From contig JAUSJT010000004.1 in the NCBI GenBank assembly GCA_030647485.1, positions 173,088-237,087 of the forward strand: DNA of 64,000 nt. The letters run 5' to 3'. The position numbers and the translations under genes were made by a program. How positions within the stretch are numbered: the stretch's first letter is position 1; every line of letters starts with the position of its first letter. This document shows, in pieces, positions 3,827-64,000 of this stretch. The DNA comes from a bacterium (lineage in GTDB: Bacteria > Patescibacteriota > Minisyncoccia > Minisyncoccales > UBA10102). Below the pieces are notes generated by a model. It had not been told where the DNA came from. It ran no database searches and saw only the letters and a program-made list of their open reading frames with translations.

Positions 3827-3909
3827 TTTTTACCCCGACCCCCGACTTAAGACACCTTCGGTTTCTTAGGTCGCTAGCGCTCCCATTTTTTCCACCACGG
3901 GCTAAAAAC
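3826..3909 (-). repeat. SR element copy A (structured dispersed repeat)
   Basis: Reverse complement carries CCGTGGTGGAAAAAA .. TAAGAAACCGAAGGTGTCTTAAG .. GGGGGTCGGGG. Flanks GTTTTTA.CCC / GGG.TAAAAAC pair with each other. Confidence 0.7.
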
Positions 3910-11614: not shown

Positions 11615-11682
11615 AGGTTTCCCCCGTGTAGGAAATTATTCAAAACCGAGGGTTTTGAAAAGAGGGGGGTCGGGGGAAACCT
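11615..11682 (+). repeat. SR element copy B
   Basis: AGGTTTCCCCCG-TGTAGGAAA..CAAAACC-GAG-GGTTTTG..GGGGGGTCGGGGGAAACCT. The outer stem is a perfect 12 bp. Confidence 0.7.
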
Positions 11683-29401: not shown

Positions 29402-29698
29402 ATGGACATCAGGGTAGTAGTAGAACTACAAACTACTAACTACAAACTAAAAACTGATTCTGGTGTTCAGCTCGCCGCTATGGAATTCATAGCGAAACAG
29501 AAAGAAAAGAATGGGGTAGCACCTAAAGGAAGAGAGATGTTCGCACAAAAGGGGCCGGGAACTTTGAATGATTTCTTCACGCAAGAACGCGAAGAGATAA
29601 GAAATTTTTTCCACCGACAGGCAGACGTGGAGATGGCATTAAAGACCCAGGTAAGTGTTGAGGTAATTCTCCGGAATTACCTGGGAAGACCCCGATAA
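29402..29698 (+). CDS. hypothetical protein (alternative start 29480)
   Basis: ORF of 98 aa. The first 26 codons overlap a G-poor CTACAAACTA leader-like motif also seen upstream of other genes, so 29480 (MEFIAKQ) may be the true start. Confidence 0.35.
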   Translation: MDIRVVVELQTTNYKLKTDSGVQLAAMEFIAKQKEKNGVAPKGREMFAQKGPGTLNDFFTQEREEIRNFFHRQADVEMALKTQVSVEVILRNYLGRPR

Positions 29699-31657: not shown

Positions 31658-31683
31658 CAATTTTTCCTATAAGGAAAAATTGC

Positions 31684-31763
31684 AAATTATTCCGTGGTGG
31701 AAAAATAGGAACGAAGTGACGTAAGAAACCGAAGGTGTCTTAAGCTGGGGGTCGGGGTAATTT
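31684..31763 (+). repeat. SR element copy C
   Basis: AAATTATTCCG..GGTGGAAAAATAGG..AGAAACC-GAA-GGTGTCT..GGGGGTCGGGGTAATTT. Ends 3 nt before tRNA-Thr. Confidence 0.75.
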
Positions 31764-31766
31764 GGT

Positions 31767-32067: not shown

Positions 32068-32081
32068 GGGAAATTTTCTTT

Positions 32082-32177
32082 GAAAATTTGCGGTTCTCCC
32101 CGTGTAGGAAAACAGGTCGCCAAAGGCGACCGTTAGAAACCGTGGGTTTCTAAAAGAGGGGGGTCGGGGTGATTTTC
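32082..32177 (+). repeat. SR element copy D
   Basis: ..CTCCCCG-TGTAGGAAAA, GGTCGCC-AAA-GGCGACC, AGAAACC-GTG-GGTTTCT, GGGGGGTCGGGGTGATTTTC. Ends 1 nt before tRNA-Trp. Confidence 0.75.
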
Positions 32178-36651: not shown

Positions 36652-37182
36652 ATGCCTAAAACAAAAGCGCAAAAAGCAATAACTCTAAAGGGATTAGGAG
36701 AACATATTGAGAAGCAGAACTCGATTCTTTTTGTTGACTATAAGGGGCTCAAGGTAAAAGAACTGCTCCTCTTGAGAAAACAGCTGAAAGAACTGGGGGC
36801 AAAACTCCAGGTCGCAAAAAAGACATTGCTCAAGAAAGCGTTGCAGGAAAAGGGGATAGACGTTGACCTGAAAGGAATGGAAGGGCAGGTAGCAGCAATC
36901 TTTTCTTTTCAAGACGCATTCTCACCTATAAAGAACGTAGCAATGTTCGCCAAGACAGCAGAAAAGCTAAAGATACTAGGGGGATACATTGAAAATCAAG
37001 TTAGAGACGCAAGCACCATGAAAGAGATCGGCTCCATTCCTTCAAAAGAAGAGCTGCTGGGAAGATTGGTAGGAAGCATTGCTTCACCCATGTCAGGATT
37101 CTTGAATGTCCTACAAGGAAACATTAAAGGTCTGGTTGTGGCATTAAACGCCATAAAAGATGCAAAAGCATCTGCTAACTAA
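36652..37182 (+). CDS. rplJ: ribosomal protein L10
   Basis: L10-like protein of 176 aa, directly upstream of rplL. Confidence 0.9.
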   Translation: MPKTKAQKAITLKGLGEHIEKQNSILFVDYKGLKVKELLLLRKQLKELGAKLQVAKKTLLKKALQEKGIDVDLKGMEGQVAAIFSFQDAFSPIKNVAMFAKTAEKLKILGGYIENQVRDASTMKEIGSIPSKEELLGRLVGSIASPMSGFLNVLQGNIKGLVVALNAIKDAKASAN

Positions 37183-37207
37183 AAACTAATAACTATAAAC
37201 TAACTAT

Positions 37208-40277: not shown

Positions 40278-40348
40278 ACAGCATCAAAAAGGTCGCATAG
40301 GTATCTATTAACTAAAAACTAATAACTATAAACTAAAAACTGAAGCAT

Positions 40349-41075: not shown

Positions 41076-43548
41076 CATTCAACAAAGCAGAATATGGGAA
41101 ACCATTTTCTTTGATCAAGTATTCTGCATAAAGAAAGTGAGGTTTTTACGCAAAGCGTTCCAGTGGATTCTTTGGACCCTATGCGTTGTGTTTGTTGTAG
41201 GATTTGTTGCAAAAACACTTTCTCAAGAAACCCTCTCCTTGGCGCTCGGGGGCATGTTTCTTTCTCTTGCCTTGATTGGAACCTTCTTTCTTGTTGAGTC
41301 CTTTGGAGAATATCTAAAGACAGGGCGCCCAGAAAAAGAAACAAAGAACCTTGCAGACGCCCTTTCTTTTGAAAGCGCCAAGGCGCTCAAGAATGCTTCA
41401 TCCTCATCACAGACGCTTTTGCGACTTGTGCGAGAGAACCCGGAACTTCACTTTGTGTTCAACAGGCTCTTGTTAAATTGGCAGAGCATGCAGAAACAAT
41501 TGAAAATCCTGAGTAGCAACGAAGGACTCAAGGGGCAACAAGGAACGGAAGATATCTTAAGATTGGTTGAAAAAGCATTTACAGCAGCTAAAGAGAATAA
41601 TCACAGAATTATAGAGAAGGGAGACCTTCTGATTGCGCTCGCAGAGGAAGAGCCGGTCTTTAAGGAAGCGCTCCGGGAACATGATATAAGCCCAAAAGAT
41701 ATTGGGAAAACCGTGTGGTGGTTAAGCATACTTGAAGAACGCATAAAAGAGCAAAAACAATGGTGGCAAGAGAAAAACTTAAGAAAAAGAGGAACTCTGG
41801 CACGCCAATGGACCGCGGGATTCACTCCAACTCTTGACCAGTTTTCTTTTGATCTTACTGAATCGTTAAAAACGCAGGGATCCCCACGGCTTGTCGGTCA
41901 CAGAAAAGAAGTGGAATCCTTAGAACGGGCATTGTCCAGGATAAAGGCAAACAATGCGCTTTTAGTGGGAGAGCCCGGGTCTGGCAGAAAAAGCATAGTG
42001 TATGAAATTGCCTTGAGAAGCATGCTCGGGGAAAGCGCACCCCATATAAATTACAAAAGAGTTTTGGAGCTTGACGTACTCGGCCTTTTAGCTCGCGTAC
42101 AAAGCTCGGCAGAACGAGAACAATATCTTGACCAGATATTCCAAGAAGTGGTGGCAGCAGGCAACGTTATTGTGTTCATTGACGACTTTCACAACTATGT
42201 AAGCTCGAGAAATCAGGGGAGGCCTGGATCCTTGGATATTTCAGCAAGCATTGCAAAATATCTCGCCACCCCTTATTTCCCCGTTATCGCCTGTACTACG
42301 TTCTCTGGACTCCATCAGGATATTGAACAGAATTCAGGCATACTTGGACTGCTAGAAAAAGTGGAAGTATCAGAGATATCTCCCGACGAGACATTTCAAG
42401 TACTCTTTCAGCTTGTGTTCTCCTTGGAGAGAAAATACCGCAAGTTCATCCCATACCAGGCCATACGAGACATTGTGAAGCTGTCTGGAAAATATATTCA
42501 GGCAGTTCCATTCCCGCAAAAGGCAGTGGATCTTTTGCAAGAAGCAGTGGTGTTTCTTAGCCAAACAAAAGACAAGGTATTGCTTGGCTCGCATATTGCG
42601 TCTCTGGTTTCTCAAAGAACGCAGATCCCAGTAGGGGACTTGGAATCAAAAGAGAAGGAGGTGCTCTTAAACTTAGAAGATCTCATCCACAAAAGAATTA
42701 TAGACCAGGAAGAAGCGGTAAAAGAAGTTTCTTCTGCGTTGCGCCGCGCAAGAACAGAAATAGGGTCAAGGAAAGGGCCCATGGGAACGTTCCTGTTCTT
42801 GGGCCCCACCGGAGTAGGGAAGACAGAGACTGCAAAAGCGTTGGCTGCCATTTACTTTGGGTCTGAAGAACGCATGGTGCGTCTTGATATGTCAGAATAC
42901 CAGAACGTCCAGGACACCGAGCGATTACTAGGTTCTGCAACCCAGGAAGGGATATTCTGCACCCAGGTCAGAGAAAATCCTTTTTCTCTTATTCTCCTAG
43001 ACGAATTGGAAAAAGCCCACCCCAACATTCTCAACCTGTTCTTGCAGGTACTAGACGAGGGGCACATCACCGACGGCATTGGAAGAAAGGTAAGCTTCCA
43101 GCACACCATCATTATCGCAACAAGCAATGCAGGTAGCCAGCTCATCTTGCAGGCATTGAAAGACCAGAAAGATTTTGCAATATTGAAAGAAGAGATCATT
43201 GACTATCTATTCAAAGAAGGAGTATACAGGCCAGAATTTATCAACCGGTTTGACGCAATGGTACTGTTCAAGCCCCTTGCCAGAGAACATCTCTTGAAAA
43301 TTGTGGACCTCATGCTTTCAAAACTTAAAAAGAATCTTGCAGAACGCGGCATTGAATTTTCTGCCACCCAATCCTTAAAAGAAAAAGTTGCAGACCTGGG
43401 GTACGATCCCAAGTTTGGAGCGCGGAACTTAAAACGCATTATCCAAGACAAGGTAGAAAATGTATTCGCAGTTGCTCTCCTGGAAGATAAACTCCAGAGA
43501 GGGGACAAGGTCGAGATGCAAGAAGACTTTACCATTACAAAACTATGA
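41053..43548 (+). CDS. membrane-anchored Clp/Hsp100-family AAA+ ATPase
   Basis: Two N-terminal TM helices and Clp_N-like repeats. NBD1 has atypical motifs (GEPGSGRKS; FIDDFH). NBD2 is canonical (GPTGVGKTETAKALA; LLDELEKAH). Confidence 0.85.
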   Translation: MASEFFFNIQQSRIWETIFFDQVFCIKKVRFLRKAFQWILWTLCVVFVVGFVAKTLSQETLSLALGGMFLSLALIGTFFLVESFGEYLKTGRPEKETKNLADALSFESAKALKNASSSSQTLLRLVRENPELHFVFNRLLLNWQSMQKQLKILSSNEGLKGQQGTEDILRLVEKAFTAAKENNHRIIEKGDLLIALAEEEPVFKEALREHDISPKDIGKTVWWLSILEERIKEQKQWWQEKNLRKRGTLARQWTAGFTPTLDQFSFDLTESLKTQGSPRLVGHRKEVESLERALSRIKANNALLVGEPGSGRKSIVYEIALRSMLGESAPHINYKRVLELDVLGLLARVQSSAEREQYLDQIFQEVVAAGNVIVFIDDFHNYVSSRNQGRPGSLDISASIAKYLATPYFPVIACTTFSGLHQDIEQNSGILGLLEKVEVSEISPDETFQVLFQLVFSLERKYRKFIPYQAIRDIVKLSGKYIQAVPFPQKAVDLLQEAVVFLSQTKDKVLLGSHIASLVSQRTQIPVGDLESKEKEVLLNLEDLIHKRIIDQEEAVKEVSSALRRARTEIGSRKGPMGTFLFLGPTGVGKTETAKALAAIYFGSEERMVRLDMSEYQNVQDTERLLGSATQEGIFCTQVRENPFSLILLDELEKAHPNILNLFLQVLDEGHITDGIGRKVSFQHTIIIATSNAGSQLILQALKDQKDFAILKEEIIDYLFKEGVYRPEFINRFDAMVLFKPLAREHLLKIVDLMLSKLKKNLAERGIEFSATQSLKEKVADLGYDPKFGARNLKRIIQDKVENVFAVALLEDKLQRGDKVEMQEDFTITKL

Positions 43549-43940: not shown

Positions 43941-43994
43941 GACATAAGAAGGAGGGAAAGAGATGGCCAGCATAGAGCTGGCTCTTTTCTTTTC

Positions 43995-44084
43995 AAATCA
44001 CCCAGTGGTGGAAAAATAGGAGGTTGCCTCAGGCGACTGACGTAAGAAACCGAAGGTGTCTTAAGCTGGGGGTCGGGGTGATTT
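43995..44084 (+). repeat. SR element copy E
   Basis: AAATCACCC-AGTGGTGGAAAAATAGG, GTTGCC-TCA-GGCGAC, AGAAACC-GAA-GGTGTCT, GGGGGTCGGGGTGATTT. Confidence 0.75.
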
Positions 44085-44090
44085 GCATCT

Positions 44091-47745: not shown

Positions 47746-47821
47746 GGCCTCATCGTCTAGCCTGGTCTAGGACATCTGGTTCTCATCCAGAAGATCAGGG
47801 GTTCAAATCCCCTTGAGGCCG
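47746..47821 (+). tRNA. tRNA-Glu (CTC)
   Basis: Acceptor GGCCTCA/TGAGGCC, anticodon arm TCTGG-TTCTCAT-CCAGA. Confidence 0.9.
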
Positions 47822-47896
47822 CAACGTAATAAATTTGTCTTGCAAATTTAAACGTTGCTGGAACGTTGAATTTTGTTAAACAAAATTCAACGTTCC
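47821..47896 (+). repeat. post-tRNA double-hairpin module, copy 2
   Basis: GCAACGT..ACGTTGC hairpin followed by GGAACGTTGAATTTTGTT-AAA-CAAAATTCAACGTTCC. Confidence 0.6.
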
Positions 47897-47968
47897 GCAA
47901 ATCAAACTTGAATCTCACAATCAGTCGTGGTACAGTAATAACAGAACGTTTGAAGGAGGTAAGTAGTA

Positions 47969-48294: not shown

Positions 48295-48348
48295 TAGGGC
48301 ATCTGGTTCTCATCCTGAAGATCAGGGGTTCAAATCCGGTTGGGGCCG
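48295..48348 (+). pseudogene. tRNA-Glu 3' fragment (anticodon arm to 3' end)
   Basis: CATCTGGTTCTCATCCtGAAGATCAGGGGTTCAAATCC matches 47773-47810. Its acceptor 3' strand differs (TGGGGCC). Confidence 0.7.
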
Positions 48349-48360
48349 CACCACATCAAT

Positions 48361-48636
48361 TTATATTCTCTTGAGTACGCTCTTGTAAGCAACTGAGCGA
48401 TGCTGTATTAAAAGTATTTTTACAATAGAACTCTCAATACGAAAGACAACGCGATAATCTCCAACCCTCAGCTTGCGATACCCCTTCAGGGAATGACGAA
48501 GAGGCCTGCCAAATACCTCGGGCTGATGGGTGAGCTTTTCTTCAATTGCTCTCTTAATACTGTTCTGCCAATCTTTTGATATCTTGGGCATGTCTTCACG
48601 AAGAACATCTTCGTGGTAACGTATCTCAAAATTCAT
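48361..48636 (-). CDS. RelE/ParE-family toxin
   Basis: 91 aa. KLRVGDYRVVFRIE..ILLIQHRS is typical of RelE/ParE. Overlaps the upstream antitoxin gene by 4 nt. Confidence 0.8.
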   Translation of the reverse strand: MNFEIRYHEDVLREDMPKISKDWQNSIKRAIEEKLTHQPEVFGRPLRHSLKGYRKLRVGDYRVVFRIESSIVKILLIQHRSVAYKSVLKRI

Positions 48637-48881
48637 GCCCTTCGACTCTGCTCAGGGCCTACGACCCATGCTTGTTTATGGGAAACAAAACGGGCTTTTT
48701 TTGTATCCCGGGTATTCGCAACCTGATCCCAAATCATGTCCTCTTCTAATTCAAGGGCAAGCTGCAGCAGATGTACAGCTTTTGTTGCTTGAGGAACCTG
48801 GTCTCGCGCAGCTACCAATGAAAGCGCCTGCTCCACGGTTTTTGGGATACTTATATTGATTCTCTTTTTTGTAGTAGCCAT
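48633..48881 (-). CDS. antitoxin (RHH-like)
   Basis: KKRINISIPKTVEQAL N-terminal ribbon-helix-helix pattern. TTGACA-TACACT promoter and GTGTATC repeats lie upstream. Confidence 0.65.
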   Translation of the reverse strand: MATTKKRINISIPKTVEQALSLVAARDQVPQATKAVHLLQLALELEEDMIWDQVANTRDTKKARFVSHKQAWVVGPEQSRRA

Positions 48882-49016: not shown

Positions 49017-49788
49017 GTGTTAGACCTCGGAGGTCTAACACTTCCGAGGTCTAACATCTTGGCTAAACCTATTCAAGAAAAAGATGGCTGAGATGAATCT
49101 CGTTTTCTTTAAGCTTTGCTGTGCTTGTATCCACAAATTCCTGGTAGAACTTTTGCGTTGTAAATTGATTCAGCACAATGTTTGGGTTAAGAAGTTCTTT
49201 CCAGCGATTTTCTCTGGCGAAATCCTGATAACTTGACCAGGGATAGGAAATCTCTTTATCCGTCCAGGCTTCCAATGATCTCGGGTTACGATGGATATAC
49301 GCTGAAAGATAAAGAAGTTGCTCGTTTTTCTCAACAGGTACCGCGCGAAAACTTCCCCGAAAAACATGTCCGCCCCTCTGGTATTTTGCATTAAAATATT
49401 TTGCGTATCCACCTTCAAGTCGTTGAAGATAGCTTGAGATACCACCCTTTTCTTTTTCTTGAATCAGCAGATGAAAATGATTGGGCATTATCGCAAAAGC
49501 ATTCAGTTCCACCTGCTGTTTGGAACGCATCTGCACTATTGCTTCTTGGGCAATGTTAAACTTTGTGTGTTCAATAAAATACGAGACGGAACGTCCGATG
49601 TTGAAAAACGGAGTGGGGAATTGATAAAAGAGCAGGAAGAAAATCATACGCGCATAGTCACGTTCGTCGAAAAAGATGGTTTTGCCATCGTTGCTTTTAT
49701 TGCAGAGATGATAATAGAACCCTGGCGCAAATTGAATTTTCCTCCTCATGCTTTTAGTGTATCATGCTAGACCTCCGAGGTCTAACAT
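49017..49788 (-). mobile_element. IS200/RAYT-like unit bounded by related palindromes
   Basis: GTGTTAGACCTC-G-GAGGTCTAACAC at 49017-49041 (plus a half-copy at 49042-49057). ATGCTAGACCTC-C-GAGGTCTAACAT at 49764-49788. Confidence 0.6.
49069..49749 (-). CDS. Y1 (HUH) transposase, IS200-like / REP-associated tyrosine transposase family
   Basis: HUH motif MPNHFHLLI and catalytic-Tyr region YLSAYIHRNP. 226 aa. Confidence 0.8.
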   Translation of the reverse strand: MRRKIQFAPGFYYHLCNKSNDGKTIFFDERDYARMIFFLLFYQFPTPFFNIGRSVSYFIEHTKFNIAQEAIVQMRSKQQVELNAFAIMPNHFHLLIQEKEKGGISSYLQRLEGGYAKYFNAKYQRGGHVFRGSFRAVPVEKNEQLLYLSAYIHRNPRSLEAWTDKEISYPWSSYQDFARENRWKELLNPNIVLNQFTTQKFYQEFVDTSTAKLKENEIHLSHLFLE

Positions 49789-56849: not shown

Positions 56850-57491
56850 ATGTCATACGAAAGATGCGAACACGGAATGTGGCCATCCGAATGTGCTCTC
56901 TGCCCTCTTAACAAGCAGGAAGAGAACAGACTCGAGACAGAGACTACTTTTGTAACTCCTCGAACTCGTCGAGTAGCAGGGGAAGAAAACGGGGAAGAGA
57001 GTGAGAAAGCAAGAAGAACAGCGGAGAAAGATACGGCAAGAGACGCCATAGTAAGATCTCATACCACAGGAAGAAGAAATAGTAATCAGAAAAGAACGCT
57101 CAGGACTCCTACGAATGGGAGAACACGAAACAAAATCTCTCCTTTACCCCTCCCGGTTAAAAGGATTTGCAGTGCCTGCGGACTGCCCAAAACTGATCTT
57201 CATAGAAACCGTAGGACCGGCGAGGTAATCTGTTACAATTGCTACCGCAAAGATATTTCCATGCACGAGGAATGTTCCAGGTGTGGTAATATCAGACAGG
57301 TGGCAATGCGCAACGCGTCTGGCGGAGCAATTTGCAACAACTGCTACCGCAAGGATCCTTCCACGCACAAGGAATGTTCCAGGTGTGGCAATATTAGACA
57401 GGTGATAGCACGCAACGAGTCTGGCGGAGCCATTTGTAAAGATTGCTATCGACACCAACGTCTCGCCAAAATGGTCGCCCATCCCGCCTAG
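56850..57491 (+). CDS. tandem zinc-ribbon protein with basic disordered linker (hypothetical)
   Basis: Three CxxC-x16-17-CxxC units (CSACG..CYNC, CSRCG..CNNC, CSRCG..CKDC) and an N-terminal C/H cluster. Confidence 0.6.
   Translation: MSYERCEHGMWPSECALCPLNKQEENRLETETTFVTPRTRRVAGEENGEESEKARRTAEKDTARDAIVRSHTTGRRNSNQKRTLRTPTNGRTRNKISPLPLPVKRICSACGLPKTDLHRNRRTGEVICYNCYRKDISMHEECSRCGNIRQVAMRNASGGAICNNCYRKDPSTHKECSRCGNIRQVIARNESGGAICKDCYRHQRLAKMVAHPA
57240..57455 (+). repeat. 102-bp tandem repeat (about 2.1 copies) inside the zinc-ribbon gene
   Basis: Units begin TGCTACCGCAA(A/G)GAT at 57240 and 57342, with a partial third at 57444. In frame, 34 aa per unit. Confidence 0.8.
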
Positions 57492-59045: not shown

Positions 59046-59405
59046 ATGGAGAATAGCCCAACCGAGGCCGAGGCTAGAATACTGGAAGAGTTCGGAAAAA
59101 ATCCAGAAGAGTATCATAGCATGCCAAGGTCCGAGTTCCGGAGTTTTTTTCAAGGATTGATAGCCCAGAATACGGCAACGCAAGACAAGAAGCGGAAACA
59201 AGAAAGGGCTGAAAAAGAACTACGGACAAGAGAGGAGGCAATCAAAGAGAGAGGATTGTGTGCTGGCATGATTGTCCATTTGAAACATGGAAAAGACTCA
59301 AAGCATCGTATCAAAGCAATTACCCCTGATTGCTACATCATCCTGGAAGGGCGTGCACGCAGCGTTACTCCTCAGGCAATCTCTCCCATAGAAGCCCTTC
59401 CGTAA
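59046..59405 (+). CDS. hypothetical protein
   Basis: GGAGGG before the ATG. 119 aa with a charged helical N-terminal half. No motif recognised. Confidence 0.45.
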   Translation: MENSPTEAEARILEEFGKNPEEYHSMPRSEFRSFFQGLIAQNTATQDKKRKQERAEKELRTREEAIKERGLCAGMIVHLKHGKDSKHRIKAITPDCYIILEGRARSVTPQAISPIEALP

Positions 59406-59462
59406 AGGGCTTCTTTTTTGGAAAAACTCGCTCTTTCATGCTACTATGCACATGAAACTTAC

Positions 59463-59498
59463 ATGGCTAATCTTGTACTATATAGAAAATATCAACCA
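59463..59498 (+). pseudogene. displaced duplicate of the dnaX 5' end
   Basis: Encodes MANLVLYRKYQP versus the genuine MPNLVLYRKYRP located 157 nt downstream. Confidence 0.65.
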
Positions 59499-59500
59499 GT

Positions 59501-59593
59501 CGCTTCGCTCCCAAGACACCTTCGGTTTCTTGCGCTCACTGCGTTCGCTGTTTTTCCACCACGGGAGGATACCCAATCCTCCCGACCCCTCCT
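59501..59593 (-). repeat. SR element copy F (rearranged / possibly circularly permuted)
   Basis: Reverse complement reads GGAGGGGTCGGGAGGAT-TGGGT-ATCCTCCCGTGGTGGAAAAAC..AAGAAACCGAAGGTGTCTT. The GGTCGGG block precedes CCGTGG and is joined to it by a hairpin. Confidence 0.6.
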
Positions 59594-59619
59594 GTGCGGT
59601 CTATATTTTCTAAACTCAT

Positions 59620-60729
59620 ATGCCTAATCTTGTACTATACAGAAAATATAGACCTAAAACCTTTGGGGAAATCACGGGCCAAGAGCATGTGGTGAGAACC
59701 TTAAAGAACGCTGTGTTGCACGGCATGATCTCCCACGCCTATTTGTTTTCCGGCCCTAGGGGATGCGGAAAAACAACCATGGCACGGCTTCTTGCTAAAG
59801 CAGTAAACTGTGAAAAGCCAAAGCAAGGAGAACCCTGCAACGAATGCTCTGCGTGCAAAGAGATAAACCTGGGCAGCGCCATGGACTTAATAGAAATAGA
59901 CGCCGCCTCCAATAGGGGAATTGACGAAATCCGAGACCTTAAAGAAGGAGTGAGATTTTCTCCTACAAAACTCAAGTACAAGGTGTTTGTCATTGACGAA
60001 GCGCATCAGCTCACAAAGGAAGCTGCAAACGCGCTCTTAAAAACTTTGGAAGAACCCCCTTCCCACGCAATCTTCATCTTAGCTACCACAGAGATACAGC
60101 GCATGATCCCAACCCTAGCTTCTCGCTGCCAGAGGTTTGACTTTCGCAAGTTGAGAGTTCCAGAAATGGTTATGCGGCTTGAAGATATGGCAAAAAAAGA
60201 GGGGATTGAGGTAGAAAAAGACGCGCTTGAGCTTCTAGCCCATCATGCTGGGGGCTCTTTGAGAGACGCAGAAGGGCTTTTAGATAAGGTTTTGACTTTC
60301 CACTTGGGCGCAGGTTCGAAAGAGAAGATACGGACGGAGGTTGTGAGAGAATTGCTGGGGATAGTGGATGTTCAGATTATAGGATCTTTTGCAGACCTTC
60401 TCTTGGCAAAGAACCCCGGGAAGGCGATAGAGTTTTTGAATAAGAACTTGGAAGATGGCATGGATCCTCAAGAGTTTGCCAAGACCCTGATAGAATACTT
60501 GAGAACCCTTCTTATCTTAAAGATAAACCCGGCACTGGAAGACATGTTTGCGGGACCATTAACAAAAGAACAGCAAGAGAAAATGAAGCTGCAATCCTCC
60601 ACTATAAACGAGGAGTTGCTGTCTCGCACCATCAAAAACTTCATGGATGCGGAGCAGAAAATGAAATATTCCAGTATTATTCAGCTTCCTTTGGAGCTTG
60701 CGATTATTGATTCTTGCGGGGTCGTCTAG
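59620..60729 (+). CDS. dnaX: DNA polymerase III gamma/tau subunit (short form)
   Basis: Walker A GPRGCGKTT, Zn module CNECSACKE, VIDEAHQLT and SRC motif. Last 15 nt overlap tRNA-Gln. Confidence 0.9.
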   Translation: MPNLVLYRKYRPKTFGEITGQEHVVRTLKNAVLHGMISHAYLFSGPRGCGKTTMARLLAKAVNCEKPKQGEPCNECSACKEINLGSAMDLIEIDAASNRGIDEIRDLKEGVRFSPTKLKYKVFVIDEAHQLTKEAANALLKTLEEPPSHAIFILATTEIQRMIPTLASRCQRFDFRKLRVPEMVMRLEDMAKKEGIEVEKDALELLAHHAGGSLRDAEGLLDKVLTFHLGAGSKEKIRTEVVRELLGIVDVQIIGSFADLLLAKNPGKAIEFLNKNLEDGMDPQEFAKTLIEYLRTLLILKINPALEDMFAGPLTKEQQEKMKLQSSTINEELLSRTIKNFMDAEQKMKYSSIIQLPLELAIIDSCGVV

Positions 60730-60786
60730 CGGTAGGACGCCACCCTTTGAAGGTGGATATCCTTGGTTCGAATCCAAGCCCCGCAG
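60715..60786 (+). tRNA. tRNA-Gln (TTG)
   Basis: U1:A72 acceptor TGCGGGG/CCCCGCA, anticodon arm CCACC-CTTTGAA-GGTGG. Confidence 0.9.
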
Positions 60787-60891
60787 CCAATTAGGACAAA
60801 ACGAGTTTCCCGCCTCGCTCGGGGCAAGCCCTCGAAATTTATATCCTGTGCACATCCGATTTGTACATTTTTTGACTCAGTCCTAAAAATT

Positions 60892-61917: not shown

Positions 61918-64000
61918 ACACCGACCAACAAAGCAAATCTTGGGTTGTTTGTCTCTCCACCTTTCCGCCACGACAGTGCGGTATAGCTACCTTTACAGCC
62001 GACCTTAGCGATGTCATCGATCAAATGTTTGGACCGTCGGTTAAGTCAAAAATTGTCGCGATGAATCTCACTGAAGTAAGCCATTTCCCTTATTCCAATA
62101 AAGTAATTCTCCAGATAAGCCAGCCTCGCGAAGAGGATTATATTAACGTTGCCAACAAGCTCAACCAACTCAAAGAGGTAAAGCTCGTTAACATTCAACA
62201 TGAATTCGGTATCTTCGGAGGAGAATATGGCTCGTATCTGCTTCTTCTTTTGGAAAAACTTCAGAAACCGATTGTTACTACTTTCCATACCGTTCTTCCC
62301 AATCCGGACGAAAGAAGGCGCGACATTGTTCAAACTATAATGAAATATTCTAAGGGAATAATCGTTATGACCAACTCTTCAAAAGAAATTCTCGAGAAGG
62401 ATTACGGATTAGATCCCGATCGAATCCAAGTTATTCCTCACGGAATCCATCACGTATCCTATAGGACCAGCAAGCAAGCCAAATCTGCCCTCGGCTTTTC
62501 TGATAAAATAATCCTCTCAACCTTCGGATTTCTTAGTCGTGGCAAAGGGATTGAGTATATAATCGAGGCATTGCCAGCAGTGGTAGGAAAATTCCCCAAT
62601 ACCCGCCTTCTTGTCGCCGGTTCCACCCACCCTGTTGTTTTAGAGCAGGAAGGTGAAACCTACCGTAATTTTCTTACTCAAAAAGTGCGCCAGCTTGATT
62701 TAAGCAACTACGTTTATTTTTATAATACCTTTTTGAATATGAATAAACTTCTTCAATTTTTAGAGGCTACGGATATATATCTTTCCACTTCTTTAAACCC
62801 GGATCAAGCCGTCTCAGGCACTTTATCTTACGCCCTTGGTAGCGGCCGTCCGATTATATCCACAGCCTTTGCTCAAGCCAAAGAAGACGTCACTAATGAG
62901 GTTGGTATATTGGTTGATTTCAGAAACCCGCAGGCTTTTACCGAAGCAATCATTAAATTAATAAGTAATAACGAATTATGCTTACAGATGGGTAAAAATG
63001 CTTATTTTCGCACCAGGCATATGACCTGGGAAAATGTCGCCAATTCCTATATGAAATATTTCTCGCAATTTACGCCGGAGTTAATCTCGGAGCAGAAAAA
63101 ACTTCCGCCCGTAAAACTTGAGCACCTTGCCAAACTAACTGATAATTTTGGTATTATCCAGTTTGCCAAACTTACTGAGCCAGACATCTCTTCCGGATAT
63201 ACTTTGGATGATAATGCCCGGGCCTTAATTGCGGCAACGATTCATTATAAAAAATTCAGAACTAATTCTGTGCTAAAACTTGCCTCCATATATCTCAATT
63301 TTGTCTGCCGGGTGGCCAAACCCGATGGTTATTTTTACGATTACGTCAATTCGAATCGAGACGTCGACAAACAAAGAAATATTCAGGAAAATTCAGAAGA
63401 TCCAAGTGCTAGGGGACTATATGCTCTTGCCTTAGTTTCAACCACAGGGCAAATCCCAAAACGCATGAGGCATCAAGCCCACTCTCTTTTTGAGCAAAGT
63501 TTCCAGAAAAATATTGCTTTTTCCTCGCCTCGCGCCATAGCTTTTTACATCAATGCTCTCTACTGTTTGCTTTCGAAATGGAAAGAACCCCGGACTCTCG
63601 CCGTATTAAGATCGTGCTGCGAACATCTCGTAGACCTGTACGAGAAAAGCCACTCGCCCGACTGGGAATGGTTTGAGCATTATTTAACGTATTCAAATGC
63701 TATCCTGCCGGAAGCGCTTCTCCTTGGATATAAAATAACCGGAGAGAAAAGATATCTTGAAGTATCTAAGAAAACCCTCGGTTTTTTAATTGAGCAAACC
63801 TTTAAGGATAATATGTACATTTCCATTGGCCAAAGCGGTTGGTTTCTCAAGGGAGAGGAAAGACAATATTTTGACCAACAGCCCGAAGATGTCGCTGCCA
63901 CCGTAGGGTTTCTTAATACGATGTTTCAAGTGACGAAAGTTGATCGTTACAGGGAATTAGCAAACATCGCATTTAACTGGTTTCTGGGAGATAATGTTCT
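61914..64000 (+). CDS. GT4-type glycosyltransferase fused to a C-terminal helical domain (3' end beyond window)
   Basis: Hand-translated frame is open from ATG 61914 (overlapping the upstream TGA) to the window edge. GT-B motifs (HEFGIFGG, FGFLSRGKGIEY, SGTLSYALGSGRPIIST). An additional region of more than 300 aa follows. Confidence 0.75.
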   Translation, partial: MNTDQQSKSWVVCLSTFPPRQCGIATFTADLSDVIDQMFGPSVKSKIVAMNLTEVSHFPYSNKVILQISQPREEDYINVANKLNQLKEVKLVNIQHEFGIFGGEYGSYLLLLLEKLQKPIVTTFHTVLPNPDERRRDIVQTIMKYSKGIIVMTNSSKEILEKDYGLDPDRIQVIPHGIHHVSYRTSKQAKSALGFSDKIILSTFGFLSRGKGIEYIIEALPAVVGKFPNTRLLVAGSTHPVVLEQEGETYRNFLTQKVRQLDLSNYVYFYNTFLNMNKLLQFLEATDIYLSTSLNPDQAVSGTLSYALGSGRPIISTAFAQAKEDVTNEVGILVDFRNPQAFTEAIIKLISNNELCLQMGKNAYFRTRHMTWENVANSYMKYFSQFTPELISEQKKLPPVKLEHLAKLTDNFGIIQFAKLTEPDISSGYTLDDNARALIAATIHYKKFRTNSVLKLASIYLNFVCRVAKPDGYFYDYVNSNRDVDKQRNIQENSEDPSARGLYALALVSTTGQIPKRMRHQAHSLFEQSFQKNIAFSSPRAIAFYINALYCLLSKWKEPRTLAVLRSCCEHLVDLYEKSHSPDWEWFEHYLTYSNAILPEALLLGYKITGEKRYLEVSKKTLGFLIEQTFKDNMYISIGQSGWFLKGEERQYFDQQPEDVAATVGFLNTMFQVTKVDRYRELANIAFNWFLGDNV

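Follow-up and report, generated by a model that had tools for sequence, protein, structure and literature searches.

Why does the dnaX gene of an ultra-small bacterium appear to begin twice? The stretch analysed here, referred to as the window, comprises 64,000 nt of contig JAUSJT010000004.1 from a Parcubacteria/Wildermuthbacteria-like member of the Patescibacteria of groundwater type (assembly GCA_030647485.1, positions 173,088 to 237,087, forward strand). Within it, a 44-nt segment at 59455-59498 returns at 59612-59655 as a direct repeat, 37 of the 44 positions being identical and seven mismatched. The two copies lie 157 nt apart and resemble each other far more closely than chance would allow. 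The 113 nt between them are occupied by a single small structured element, SR copy F, on the minus strand. The repeat and its antisense occupant had both been noted in a preliminary description of the locus, and every statement it made about their sequences was confirmed. We propose that F is a non-autonomous, guide-bearing homing cassette of Patescibacteria that is directed to gene termini, a reading to which we assign a probability of about 60%. The identity of F, its gain in this particular lineage and the nature of its targets are well supported.

Each copy of the repeat comprises 8 nt of leader and, from the ATG onwards, codons 1-12 of dnaX. The upstream copy (repeat copy 2, 59455-59498, plus strand; ATG at 59463) encodes MANLVLYRKYQP and adjoins the native upstream region, while the downstream copy (repeat copy 1, 59612-59655, plus strand; ATG at 59620) encodes MPNLVLYRKYRP and is continuous with the gene body. 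Only the latter runs on into the 369-aa DnaX (59620-60729, plus strand; clamp-loader gamma/tau subunit; Pfam DNA_pol3_delta2, 3e-50), such that the host gene is left intact. Both copies contain a short target segment, X. In the functional gene this is X1 (AGAAAATATAGACC, 59641-59654, plus strand, codons RKYRP), the reverse complement of which is GGTCTATATTTTCT, and in the displaced start it is X2 (AGAAAATATCAACC, 59484-59497, plus strand, codons RKYQP), the element being joined right after position 59498. A diversity-generating retroelement with template and variable repeat was considered and ruled out, as the seven mismatches are not adenine-specific. The window DnaX is at best 69% identical to proteins from species representatives. 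A 100% match is present in a metagenome-assembled genome at NCBI, and an exact-match look-up of the protein returned no contig. The last 15 nt of dnaX, including the stop codon, overlap the 5' end of a tRNA-Gln gene (60715-60789).

Architecture of element F and its family

Element F (59499-59611, minus strand) has a P1-capped topology and reads X', linker, GGGGU, P1, GUGGUGGAAAAA, P2, P3 and GGGAGCGAAGCGAC on its own strand. It begins with the guide-like segment X' (AGAAAAUAUAGACC, 59598-59611), an exact reverse complement of X1 (14/14) that matches X2 at 12 of 14 positions. A purine-rich linker, GCACAGGA (59590-59597), leads from X' to the core, its equivalent elsewhere in the family being the ..RRA that precedes GGGGU. 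Family comparison identifies GGGGU (59585-59589) as an invariant junction strand and (G)UGGUGGAAAAA (59551-59561) as a conserved one. Between them stands the P1 hairpin CGGGAGGAU-UGGGU-AUCCUCCCG (59562-59584), formed by the helix that is open at the ends of the five other SR copies in the window, A to E. There follow a variable P2-like insert, CAGCGAACGCAGUGAGCGC (59532-59550), where many copies have an optional hairpin, and the P3 hairpin AAGAAACCGAAGGUGUCUU (59513-59531), the stem of which recurs unchanged in P3 of the resident copies A, C and E. The 3' tail GGGAGCGAAGCGAC (59499-59512) carries a GCGAAGC mini-hairpin and directly borders X2 with its last base. X2 pairs with X' on the minus strand at 12 of 14 positions and closes the SR fold; the complete minus-strand structure, F plus the X2 closure, has a folding energy of -48.6 kcal/mol (z -4.7).

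The preliminary description had stated that F joins, by a UGGGU hairpin, two blocks that are open in the other five copies, and this holds. On the minus strand the block order of F is GGGGUCGGG, capped hairpin, CCCGUGGUGGAAA, with the hairpin GGGAGGAU-UGGGU-AUCCUCCC connecting GGGGUCGGG to the following CCCGUGGUGGAAAAA. The resident copies are arranged as CCCGUG..GGAAA, (P2), P3, GGGGGUCGGGG, with P1 as an open closing helix. All five have this P1-open order: copy A (~3830-3901, minus strand), copy B (11615-11680, plus strand), copy C (31680-31764, plus strand), copy D (32071-32175, plus strand) and copy E (43991-44085, plus strand). A TATAAT box immediately precedes copy B, which lies 16 nt in front of a nusG-like gene, and copies C and D end 2-3 nt before genes for tRNA-Thr and tRNA-Trp. 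A pattern for the permuted order matched once in the window (59553-59589, minus strand) and not at all in 100 shuffles. Two further apparent SR copies, at 63771-63785 and 42963-43031, were dismissed as chance matches within coding sequence.

Is F then the exception? Metagenomes were scanned for a pattern exclusive to the F order (GGGGTCGGG, 8-30 nt, CCCGTGKWGGAAA). It matched at least 120 contigs, and among the matches listed the full F architecture is present in all but one (L103) of 120 contigs. Covariance model R1, built from 33 family copies, finds 126 copies besides F in the retrieved loci. Folding F with the family model, as had been suggested earlier, gave a match at 59524-59597 (minus strand) with 45.8 bits and an E value of 2e-11. 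Across 106 distinct sequences P1 is paired at 98.2%, and five of its nine pairs show double changes, an example being a pair that appears as G-C in 51 sequences and as A-U in 50; in slid-structure controls pairing drops to 38-62%. The conserved three-helix core reads GGGGU, P1, GUGKWGGAAA, optional P2, P3 and GGAG-P4-CGAC, and the family is strand-specific in its GCGAAGC motif (57 occurrences on the SR strand versus one of the complement). F shows all features of the P1-capped family, i.e. block order, helices and the GGAG-P4-CGAC tail with GCGAAGC, as well as those of a gene-terminus subtype, namely a gene-end repeat and an antisense X' beside the core.

The earlier proposal that copy F is rearranged therefore stands only in part. 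Of its two suggested explanations, permutation is retained, while two juxtaposed half copies are rejected because more than 100 independent copies share the same order and the capped P1 covaries family-wide. Judged by block order, F is a genuine circular permutation relative to A-E, but it is not the odd one out: relative to the family the permuted order belongs to A-E, and F is standard. The A-E order was found five times in the 64-kb window versus not once in 876 kb of other SR-bearing contigs, which had been gathered by the F-order pattern. Two circular permutations of one fold in one genome make up a rare natural experiment in nucleic-acid architecture. In locus L075, a P1-capped copy resides in the same tRNA-Tyr/tRNA-Thr spacer that holds copy C in the window.

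Comparison with Rfam returned only tRNAs, both for the whole window at gathering thresholds and for F and copies C and D at E values up to 10. A matching description was not found in the literature, whether by concept or by literal motif strings. Three patterns had no matches in a viral contig collection, and an origin from phages was rejected on these grounds. F apparently belongs to a large family of structured insertion cassettes in Patescibacteria that are devoid of open reading frames (ORFs) and have not been described before. One P1-capped subgroup (L035, L059, L104, L119 and L137) is without a gene-end repeat. Its members have the tails ...CCCACAUCGGAGR (5' side) and ...YTTGGTATTACCACT (3' side) in common, immediately in front of the ATG of unrelated genes (rpsU, NUDIX and membrane protein genes), and this may represent an element-borne promoter or leader.

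Gene ends, antisense segments and targets

The arrangement at dnaX recurs throughout the family. Read on the SR strand, an intact gene ending in X-E is followed by a spacer, X', the purine-rich linker, a core that terminates in ...CGAC, another X-E and the native flank; X' corresponds to the first 10-19 nt of the repeat in reverse complement. Layout statistics were compiled for 99 loci with sufficient flanking sequence, with permuted locus pairs as controls. A direct repeat scoring at least 13 is present in 52 of the 99 loci versus 4 of 293 permuted pairs, and an X'/X complement scoring at least 8 in 50 of 99 versus 53 of 489. Where both features occur, X begins within 3 nt of the repeat start in 27 of 36 loci. 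In the 52 repeat-bearing copies, the repeat has a median length of 23.5 nt (range 14-80) and encloses an insert of 160 nt (median; range 94-543). Exact X'/X1 complements extend, at their longest, over a median of 12 nt, and over at least 10 nt in 39 of these 52 copies. X' fits the copy in the intact gene, X1, better than the displaced X2 in 31 of 38 cases, with six ties and a single reversal. Frequently it also reaches 3-4 nt over the junction into the gene body, and it is therefore complementary to the uninterrupted target site. The window conforms exactly to the family layout, with an insert of 113 nt, complementarity of X' to X1 and X2 of 14/14 and 12/14, respectively, and the last base of the core abutting X2.

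A simple target-site duplication of fixed length was ruled out, since repeat lengths vary between 14 and 80 nt and the differences between some copies are mostly synonymous. The elements do not resemble miniature inverted-repeat transposable elements either: they have no shared terminal inverted repeats, X' is target-specific and, again, the repeat length is 14-80 nt.

The targets fall into a recognizable pattern. Twenty-four repeat-bearing copies are located at 3' ends of tRNA genes, where the crossover lies in the T-loop, the tRNA remains intact and the repeats frequently stop exactly at the tRNA 3' end. Protein-coding genes are hit at their 3' ends when they lie on the SR strand and at their 5' ends when they lie on the opposite strand. 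The former are represented by the C-terminal RFW motif of MraY (L047, L072), the WYDNEW motif of GAPDH (L051, L078) and GAGDI/GAGNI of a probable Mur-type ligase (L084, L126, L134; assigned by eye only). Among the latter are RKYRP of DnaX (the window, L004, L048 and L071), GIDLGTTNS of DnaK, L11, the AHIDxGK motif of EF-G and a LepA-like GTPase, and GMHC of a heavy-metal ATPase (HMA). Every target is a strongly conserved motif that lies at most a few dozen nucleotides from a gene end. This is the signature of a homing element, which has to locate its site in hosts new to it and leave them alive.

In L036 and L096, a single target carries serial or nested insertions. At the 3' end of tRNA-Ala in L036 (1860-2010), the SR element is accompanied by a second small element with a different core, GGTTTCGGGGAGATTGAGAACTTCCAGTCCCCGAATC..., which has the same junction motif, ...CAGTGAGAT|TCTCCCC, at its end; behind it the tRNA end appears for a third time, together with a terminator. 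This suggests related element families with a common junction chemistry. A partial tRNA copy is also present in the window itself: the last 56 nt of tRNA-Glu (47746-47822) recur, decayed but still 91% identical and with CCA, 472 nt downstream at 48295-48350. The gene and its fragment bracket a 91-aa membrane ORF and a perfect inverted repeat (~47859-47897), and an SR core is not found there.

Gain of the element and expression of dnaX

The preliminary description had proposed the insertion or recombination of an SR element at a gene terminus, with displacement of an old, diverged gene end, and had pointed to the orthologous cysS-dnaX region of relatives as informative. Empty sites bear this out. 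In L145, L146 and L147, which encode DnaX proteins 90-92% identical to that of the window, the cysS-dnaX synteny is kept, dnaX has a single start (MANLV, MENLV or MTNLV), and neither an element nor a match to the covariance model is present; the arrangement is thus not common to all relatives. The old start in the window is of the MANLV type native to close relatives (P0002, P0004, P0006 and P0007). A second pair of sites is provided by L002, the empty counterpart of occupied L004 with the same upstream region and start (MATNL...); among 16 patescibacterial dnaX loci from species representatives, L004 is the only one occupied. These comparisons show that dnaX of this lineage acquired the element behind codon 12, and that the old start and the native upstream region were pushed 157 nt upstream while the gene now begins at a second start beside the element.

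The native upstream region begins with a terminator-like hairpin (59390-59414, plus strand; 10-bp stem, then a T run) that closes a 119-aa ORF (59046-59405) between cysS and dnaX, for which no Pfam match was obtained. L145 and L146 lack this ORF, ~20 nt separating the starts of cysS and dnaX there, and L147 has a 164-aa ORF at that position. The cysS-dnaX spacer is thus a variable insertion hotspot.

Where does the second start come from? The new starts of the window, L004 and L048 all encode MPNL, with proline at position 2, and cluster together, while the old or empty starts compared have alanine, glutamate or threonine at this position. A native MPNIV start without any element exists in L148. 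The new start of L048 agrees with that of the window at 32 of 36 positions versus 25 of 36 with its own old start. In L026, two dnaK starts encode nearly the same 17 residues with about 12 mostly synonymous differences and have therefore diverged as coding sequences in different genomes. Taken together, the MPNL starts and the L048 and L026 comparisons speak for a cassette that brings a gene end of its own and passes from lineage to lineage. Perfect repeats reaching beyond the gene are found in L047 (80/80), L039 (73/73) and L054 (including terminator and X'). Because of such repeats, and of the leader included in the repeat of the window, local duplication at birth or gene conversion must also happen.

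The insertion poses a problem for the expression of an essential gene, and the sequence offers a possible solution. From the old ATG, an upstream open reading frame (uORF) of 54 codons (59463-59627, plus strand) is open through the antisense element, and its stop codon TAA (59625-59627) overlaps the new start (ATGCCTAA). In the mRNA sense, the complement of X' and X1 form a hairpin with a perfect 14-bp stem and a 29-nt loop that contains the new ATG (59598-59654, plus strand; -16.1 kcal/mol, z -5.2). Equivalent hairpins enclosing the start are even stronger in L004, L048 and L071, with z values of -5 to -7 over the four genomes. A uORF is open from the displaced start in all eight insertions examined at protein 5' ends, which affect five different target genes. 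These uORFs have 49-76 codons, and their stops fall in an interval of -27 to +17 nt relative to the new ATG, two of them forming ATGA overlaps. In the frame of the old ATG, none of the eight contains a stop, while 14 of the 16 alternative frames do. The product of the per-locus shuffle probabilities is ~3e-7, or ~1e-4 if the four dnaX loci are counted once.

As all eight uORFs are open and stop at the new ATG, comparison lends good support to a coupling of termination and reinitiation that would keep dnaX expressed. Ribosomes would load at the native old ATG, translate the uORF through the antisense element, open the 14-bp hairpin holding the new ATG, stop at ATGCCTAA and reinitiate at the new dnaX start. 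The upstream copy is thus probably translated as a 54-codon, out-of-frame uORF. A longer DnaX starting from the upstream ATG, which the preliminary description had named, in combination with an identical arrangement in all relatives, as a finding that would speak against insertion, is ruled out as that ATG lies in another frame, which stops at 59625-59627.

Mode of insertion and rival explanations

If F is indeed a homing cassette, the mobile unit would consist of a substitute for the targeted gene terminus together with a short spacer, an X' of 10-19 nt antisense to the target site, the conserved three-helix core, and a precise junction between the 3' end of the core and the 5' edge of X. The target would be chosen by base pairing or homology of X' (and of the element-borne X1) with the conserved motif near the gene end. 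We envisage that the cassette moves as DNA, either single-stranded or as a minicircle, in the form {X-E, spacer, X', core}. Cleavage and joining of this intermediate would take place at the 5' edge of X, while X' would hold the donor and target sites in register, and the acting enzyme would be supplied in trans. An intermediate of this kind would explain why one fold occurs in two permuted orders. More tentative, and in our view somewhat improbable, is the further-reaching idea that elements of the F type constitute a new class of programmable, nucleic-acid-guided mobile DNA. In that case a core of ~100 nt with an antisense address of 10-19 nt would insert precisely, as a single strand, next to this address and bring a spare gene end, acting alone or with a host factor. 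Such elements would differ in mechanism from CRISPR-associated transposons, IS110 bridge RNAs, IS605 guides and group II introns.

Several points weigh against the homing cassette. About half of the family copies are without a repeat, and in copies A-E, all five of which were checked, neither a flanking direct repeat nor an antisense segment is present. X' may be a by-product of insertion, or serve only the mRNA hairpin and not as a guide, and homology of the carried gene end alone could explain the recurrent targets. The SR helices contain very few G-U pairs, and functions as RNA and as DNA are therefore not separable. In the window, the old and the new start agree at 31 of 36 positions (including the 8-nt leader), which makes them as similar as the new start is to other new starts, so that local duplication or gene conversion is not separable from import at this site. 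No strong sigma-70-like promoter was detected in the region, the only signal being the terminator at 59390-59414. An enzyme could not be linked to the element, as the ORFs within 2.5 kb of 120 copies clustered into housekeeping families only. Pfam analysis of 36 ORFs in the window revealed one transposase-like gene, a Y1/RAYT-like gene at 49069-49749 (minus strand; Y1_Tnp, 2e-12). This gene and four homologues are flanked by GTTAGAC..GTCTAAC hairpins and not by SR, and no SR occurs in 73 kb around the four homologues.

How much of the evidence could be accommodated otherwise? It is conceivable that a circle {gene end, spacer, X', core} pops out between the direct repeats and re-integrates, or spreads on transformed DNA, by Campbell-type homologous recombination within the 15-80 nt of gene-end homology, X' being a structural or expression feature rather than a guide. 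Such a scheme would profit from flanking repeats that are often 100% identical over up to 80 nt, from the MPNL start that travels as cargo and from conserved motifs being the places where cross-species homology persists, and precise loss would restore the gene and fit the patchy distribution. We nevertheless regard it as unlikely: it does not account for a new duplicate plus an exact antisense X' at 25 or more targets, it leaves the fixed place of X' beside the conserved core and the precise core-X2 junction without explanation, and repeats of 14-25 nt (median 23.5) are poor RecA substrates. A more specific version of the homing cassette, somewhat less probable still, would be a single-stranded DNA element of the PATE/REPIN kind moved by a Y1 (HUH) transposase such as that at 49069-49749, the long X' playing the role of the 4-nt guide sequence of IS200/IS605. 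IS608 recognises its target via base pairing with an internal guide. The strand-specific hairpins with their GCGAAGC bias, the scarcity of G-U pairs, the signature of circular permutation and a Y1 gene that is conserved and syntenic in this genome and widespread in Parcubacteria would all suit this version. Yet the Y1 hairpins share only TTAGA/TCTAA stem ends with some P3 variants, tblastn found no Y1 homologue in ~0.95 Mb of SR-bearing and dnaX loci, and IS200/IS605 elements produce no flanking repeats. Because the hairpins differ, the neighbourhoods of the homologues are free of SR and no homologue lies near SR copies, a Y1-SR link is unsupported, and the lack of co-location together with the ORF clustering and the hairpin mismatch led us to reject a linked transposase.

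A quite improbable alternative is a self-processing RNA, i.e. a new self-cleaving and -ligating ribozyme or a product of tRNA processing, the circular form of which would be copied back to DNA and thus give rise to both orders. A three-way junction with invariant single-stranded nucleotides and two natural permutations, as in hammerhead and twister ribozymes, would be in accordance with this idea. Some copies are moreover placed exactly between, or directly 5' of, tRNA genes (e.g. L075) and would therefore be released by RNase P/Z. Against this stand the lack of any Rfam ribozyme match even at E values up to 10, the lack of a conserved promoter upstream of X', the terminators often found between gene and X', and the antisense orientation at protein 5' ends. 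The GCGAAGC mini-hairpin is exceptionally stable as DNA, which favours DNA. Group II introns have not been detected in Patescibacteria (PMC13011429), and the common bacterial source of reverse transcriptase is therefore missing. Least credible by far is an immobile leader or attenuator of dnaX that arose by local duplication, or an assembly artefact. The uORF and the start-sequestering hairpin do resemble a regulatory leader, and the old and new copies in the window are similar even in the 8-nt leader, but more than 100 independent assemblies show this core and layout, at tRNAs as well as at many unrelated genes, and close relatives lack the arrangement. An artefact is ruled out by the recurrence of the layout in independent assemblies and by the seven positions at which the two copies differ, which exclude a collapsed or duplicated read.

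Several known systems come close to the proposed homing cassette. Islands and phages integrated by tyrosine recombinases (attP) likewise replace the gene part distal to the crossover, displace the old end and leave direct repeats, and they too favour the tRNA T-loop and conserved genes as safe, widely available targets. F shares with them the gene end duplicated at both junctions and the gene restored by element-borne sequence, but has no integrase inside. SR inserts are only ~95-540 nt in size, lack any ORF and have housekeeping neighbours. They hit many unrelated sequences including protein 5' ends, each copy with a matching antisense segment, and have a structured core in place of arm-type protein sites. 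Closest in mechanism appear to be guide pairing in IS200/IS605 and the RNA-gene-only minicircles of an IS110 element (PMC12288879). IS200/IS605 elements, PATEs and REP/REPIN-RAYT systems resemble SR as small, non-autonomous, strand-specific hairpins mobilised in trans. In IS200/IS605 the target or cleavage site is read by pairing with an internal sequence and the intermediates are circular and single-stranded, much as proposed here, and a RAYT-like Y1 gene is present in this genome. Their guides, however, measure 4-5 nt versus 10-19 nt in SR, the direct repeats flanking SR carry gene ends, the cognate hairpins of the Y1 gene are not SR, and no IS605-type RNA from Rfam matched. Nor do SR elements agree with PATEs and REPINs in flanking the Y1 gene with the element's own hairpins or in using a fixed tetra- or pentanucleotide site without duplication, since gene-end repeats of 14-80 nt occur at diverse targets. 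For the IS110/IS1111 group, nucleic-acid-guided target choice by a bridge (seek) RNA, minicircles and the spread of an RNA module with the transposase in trans parallel the SR proposal, as exemplified by the RNA-gene-only minicircles of ssr9 from the IS110 element ISPpu9 (PMC12288879). SR differs in having a single antisense segment instead of two bipartite loops, in duplicating a gene terminus and in a fold that is unrelated as far as can be judged. An ORF for a DEDD-type or serine recombinase was not found in the window, nor one for a DEDD-type recombinase near 120 family copies.

Mobile group I and II introns and inteins also home into the most conserved motifs with host function kept, and in introns an internal sequence pairs with the flanking target, as is proposed for SR. 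SR is not spliced, however, and function would be kept by the spare gene end and translational coupling; moreover, the element is only ~100 nt long, lies outside the functional ORF and is antisense at 5' ends. Covariance models of group I and II introns gave no match at the Rfam gathering threshold or at E values up to 10. Hammerhead types I-III, twister P1/P3/P5 and retrozymes provide precedents for one three-helix fold in permuted orders and for a link to repetitive or mobile DNA. SR matches no Rfam ribozyme in sequence or structure; the covariance models for hammerhead, twister, hairpin, HDV-like, pistol, hatchet and twister-sister all remained without a hit. Rickettsia palindromic elements are short palindromic repeats tolerated in translated regions because one frame stays open, and a frame open through the repeat is what they have in common with SR. 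They are translated in frame within the host protein, whereas the open frame of SR is a separate uORF that ends at the new start.

If the proposed reading is correct, a very abundant, gene-less selfish element resides in the ultra-small genomes of Patescibacteria (at least 120 contigs) and finds conserved gene termini via a short complementary sequence. It would explain gene-end fragments, "pseudo-starts" and partial tRNA copies in assemblies of the Candidate Phyla Radiation and be a source of start-codon mis-annotation. It would also provide natural cases of essential genes sustained by uORF termination-reinitiation across an insert. Furthermore, it would be a compact candidate for guide-directed DNA insertion, testable with oligonucleotide-sized substrates for a single-stranded DNA transposase, host recombination or self-catalysis.

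Some further features of the window were recorded. The hairpins on both sides of the Y1 gene (49021-49052 and 49768-49786) have the form GTTAGACCTC(N)GAGGTCTAAC, and dispersed copies of them are absent from the window. Homologues of this gene are always accompanied by GTTAGAC...GTCTAAC hairpins with covarying inner stems. The gene is widespread and conserved in Parcubacteria, and a relative whose protein is 76% identical keeps it in the syntenic position beside a P-type ATPase gene. Its neighbours in the window include a RelE-like toxin gene and a small upstream ORF (48361-48881). A tandem duplication of 102 nt (57219-57422, 80% identical) is situated inside a cysteine-rich 213-aa ORF without Pfam match (56850-57491). 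AT-rich arrays of AACTA-like pentamers (repeat families D4 and D6) are present at 29424-29457, 37152-37203 and 40285-40343, all of them intergenic.

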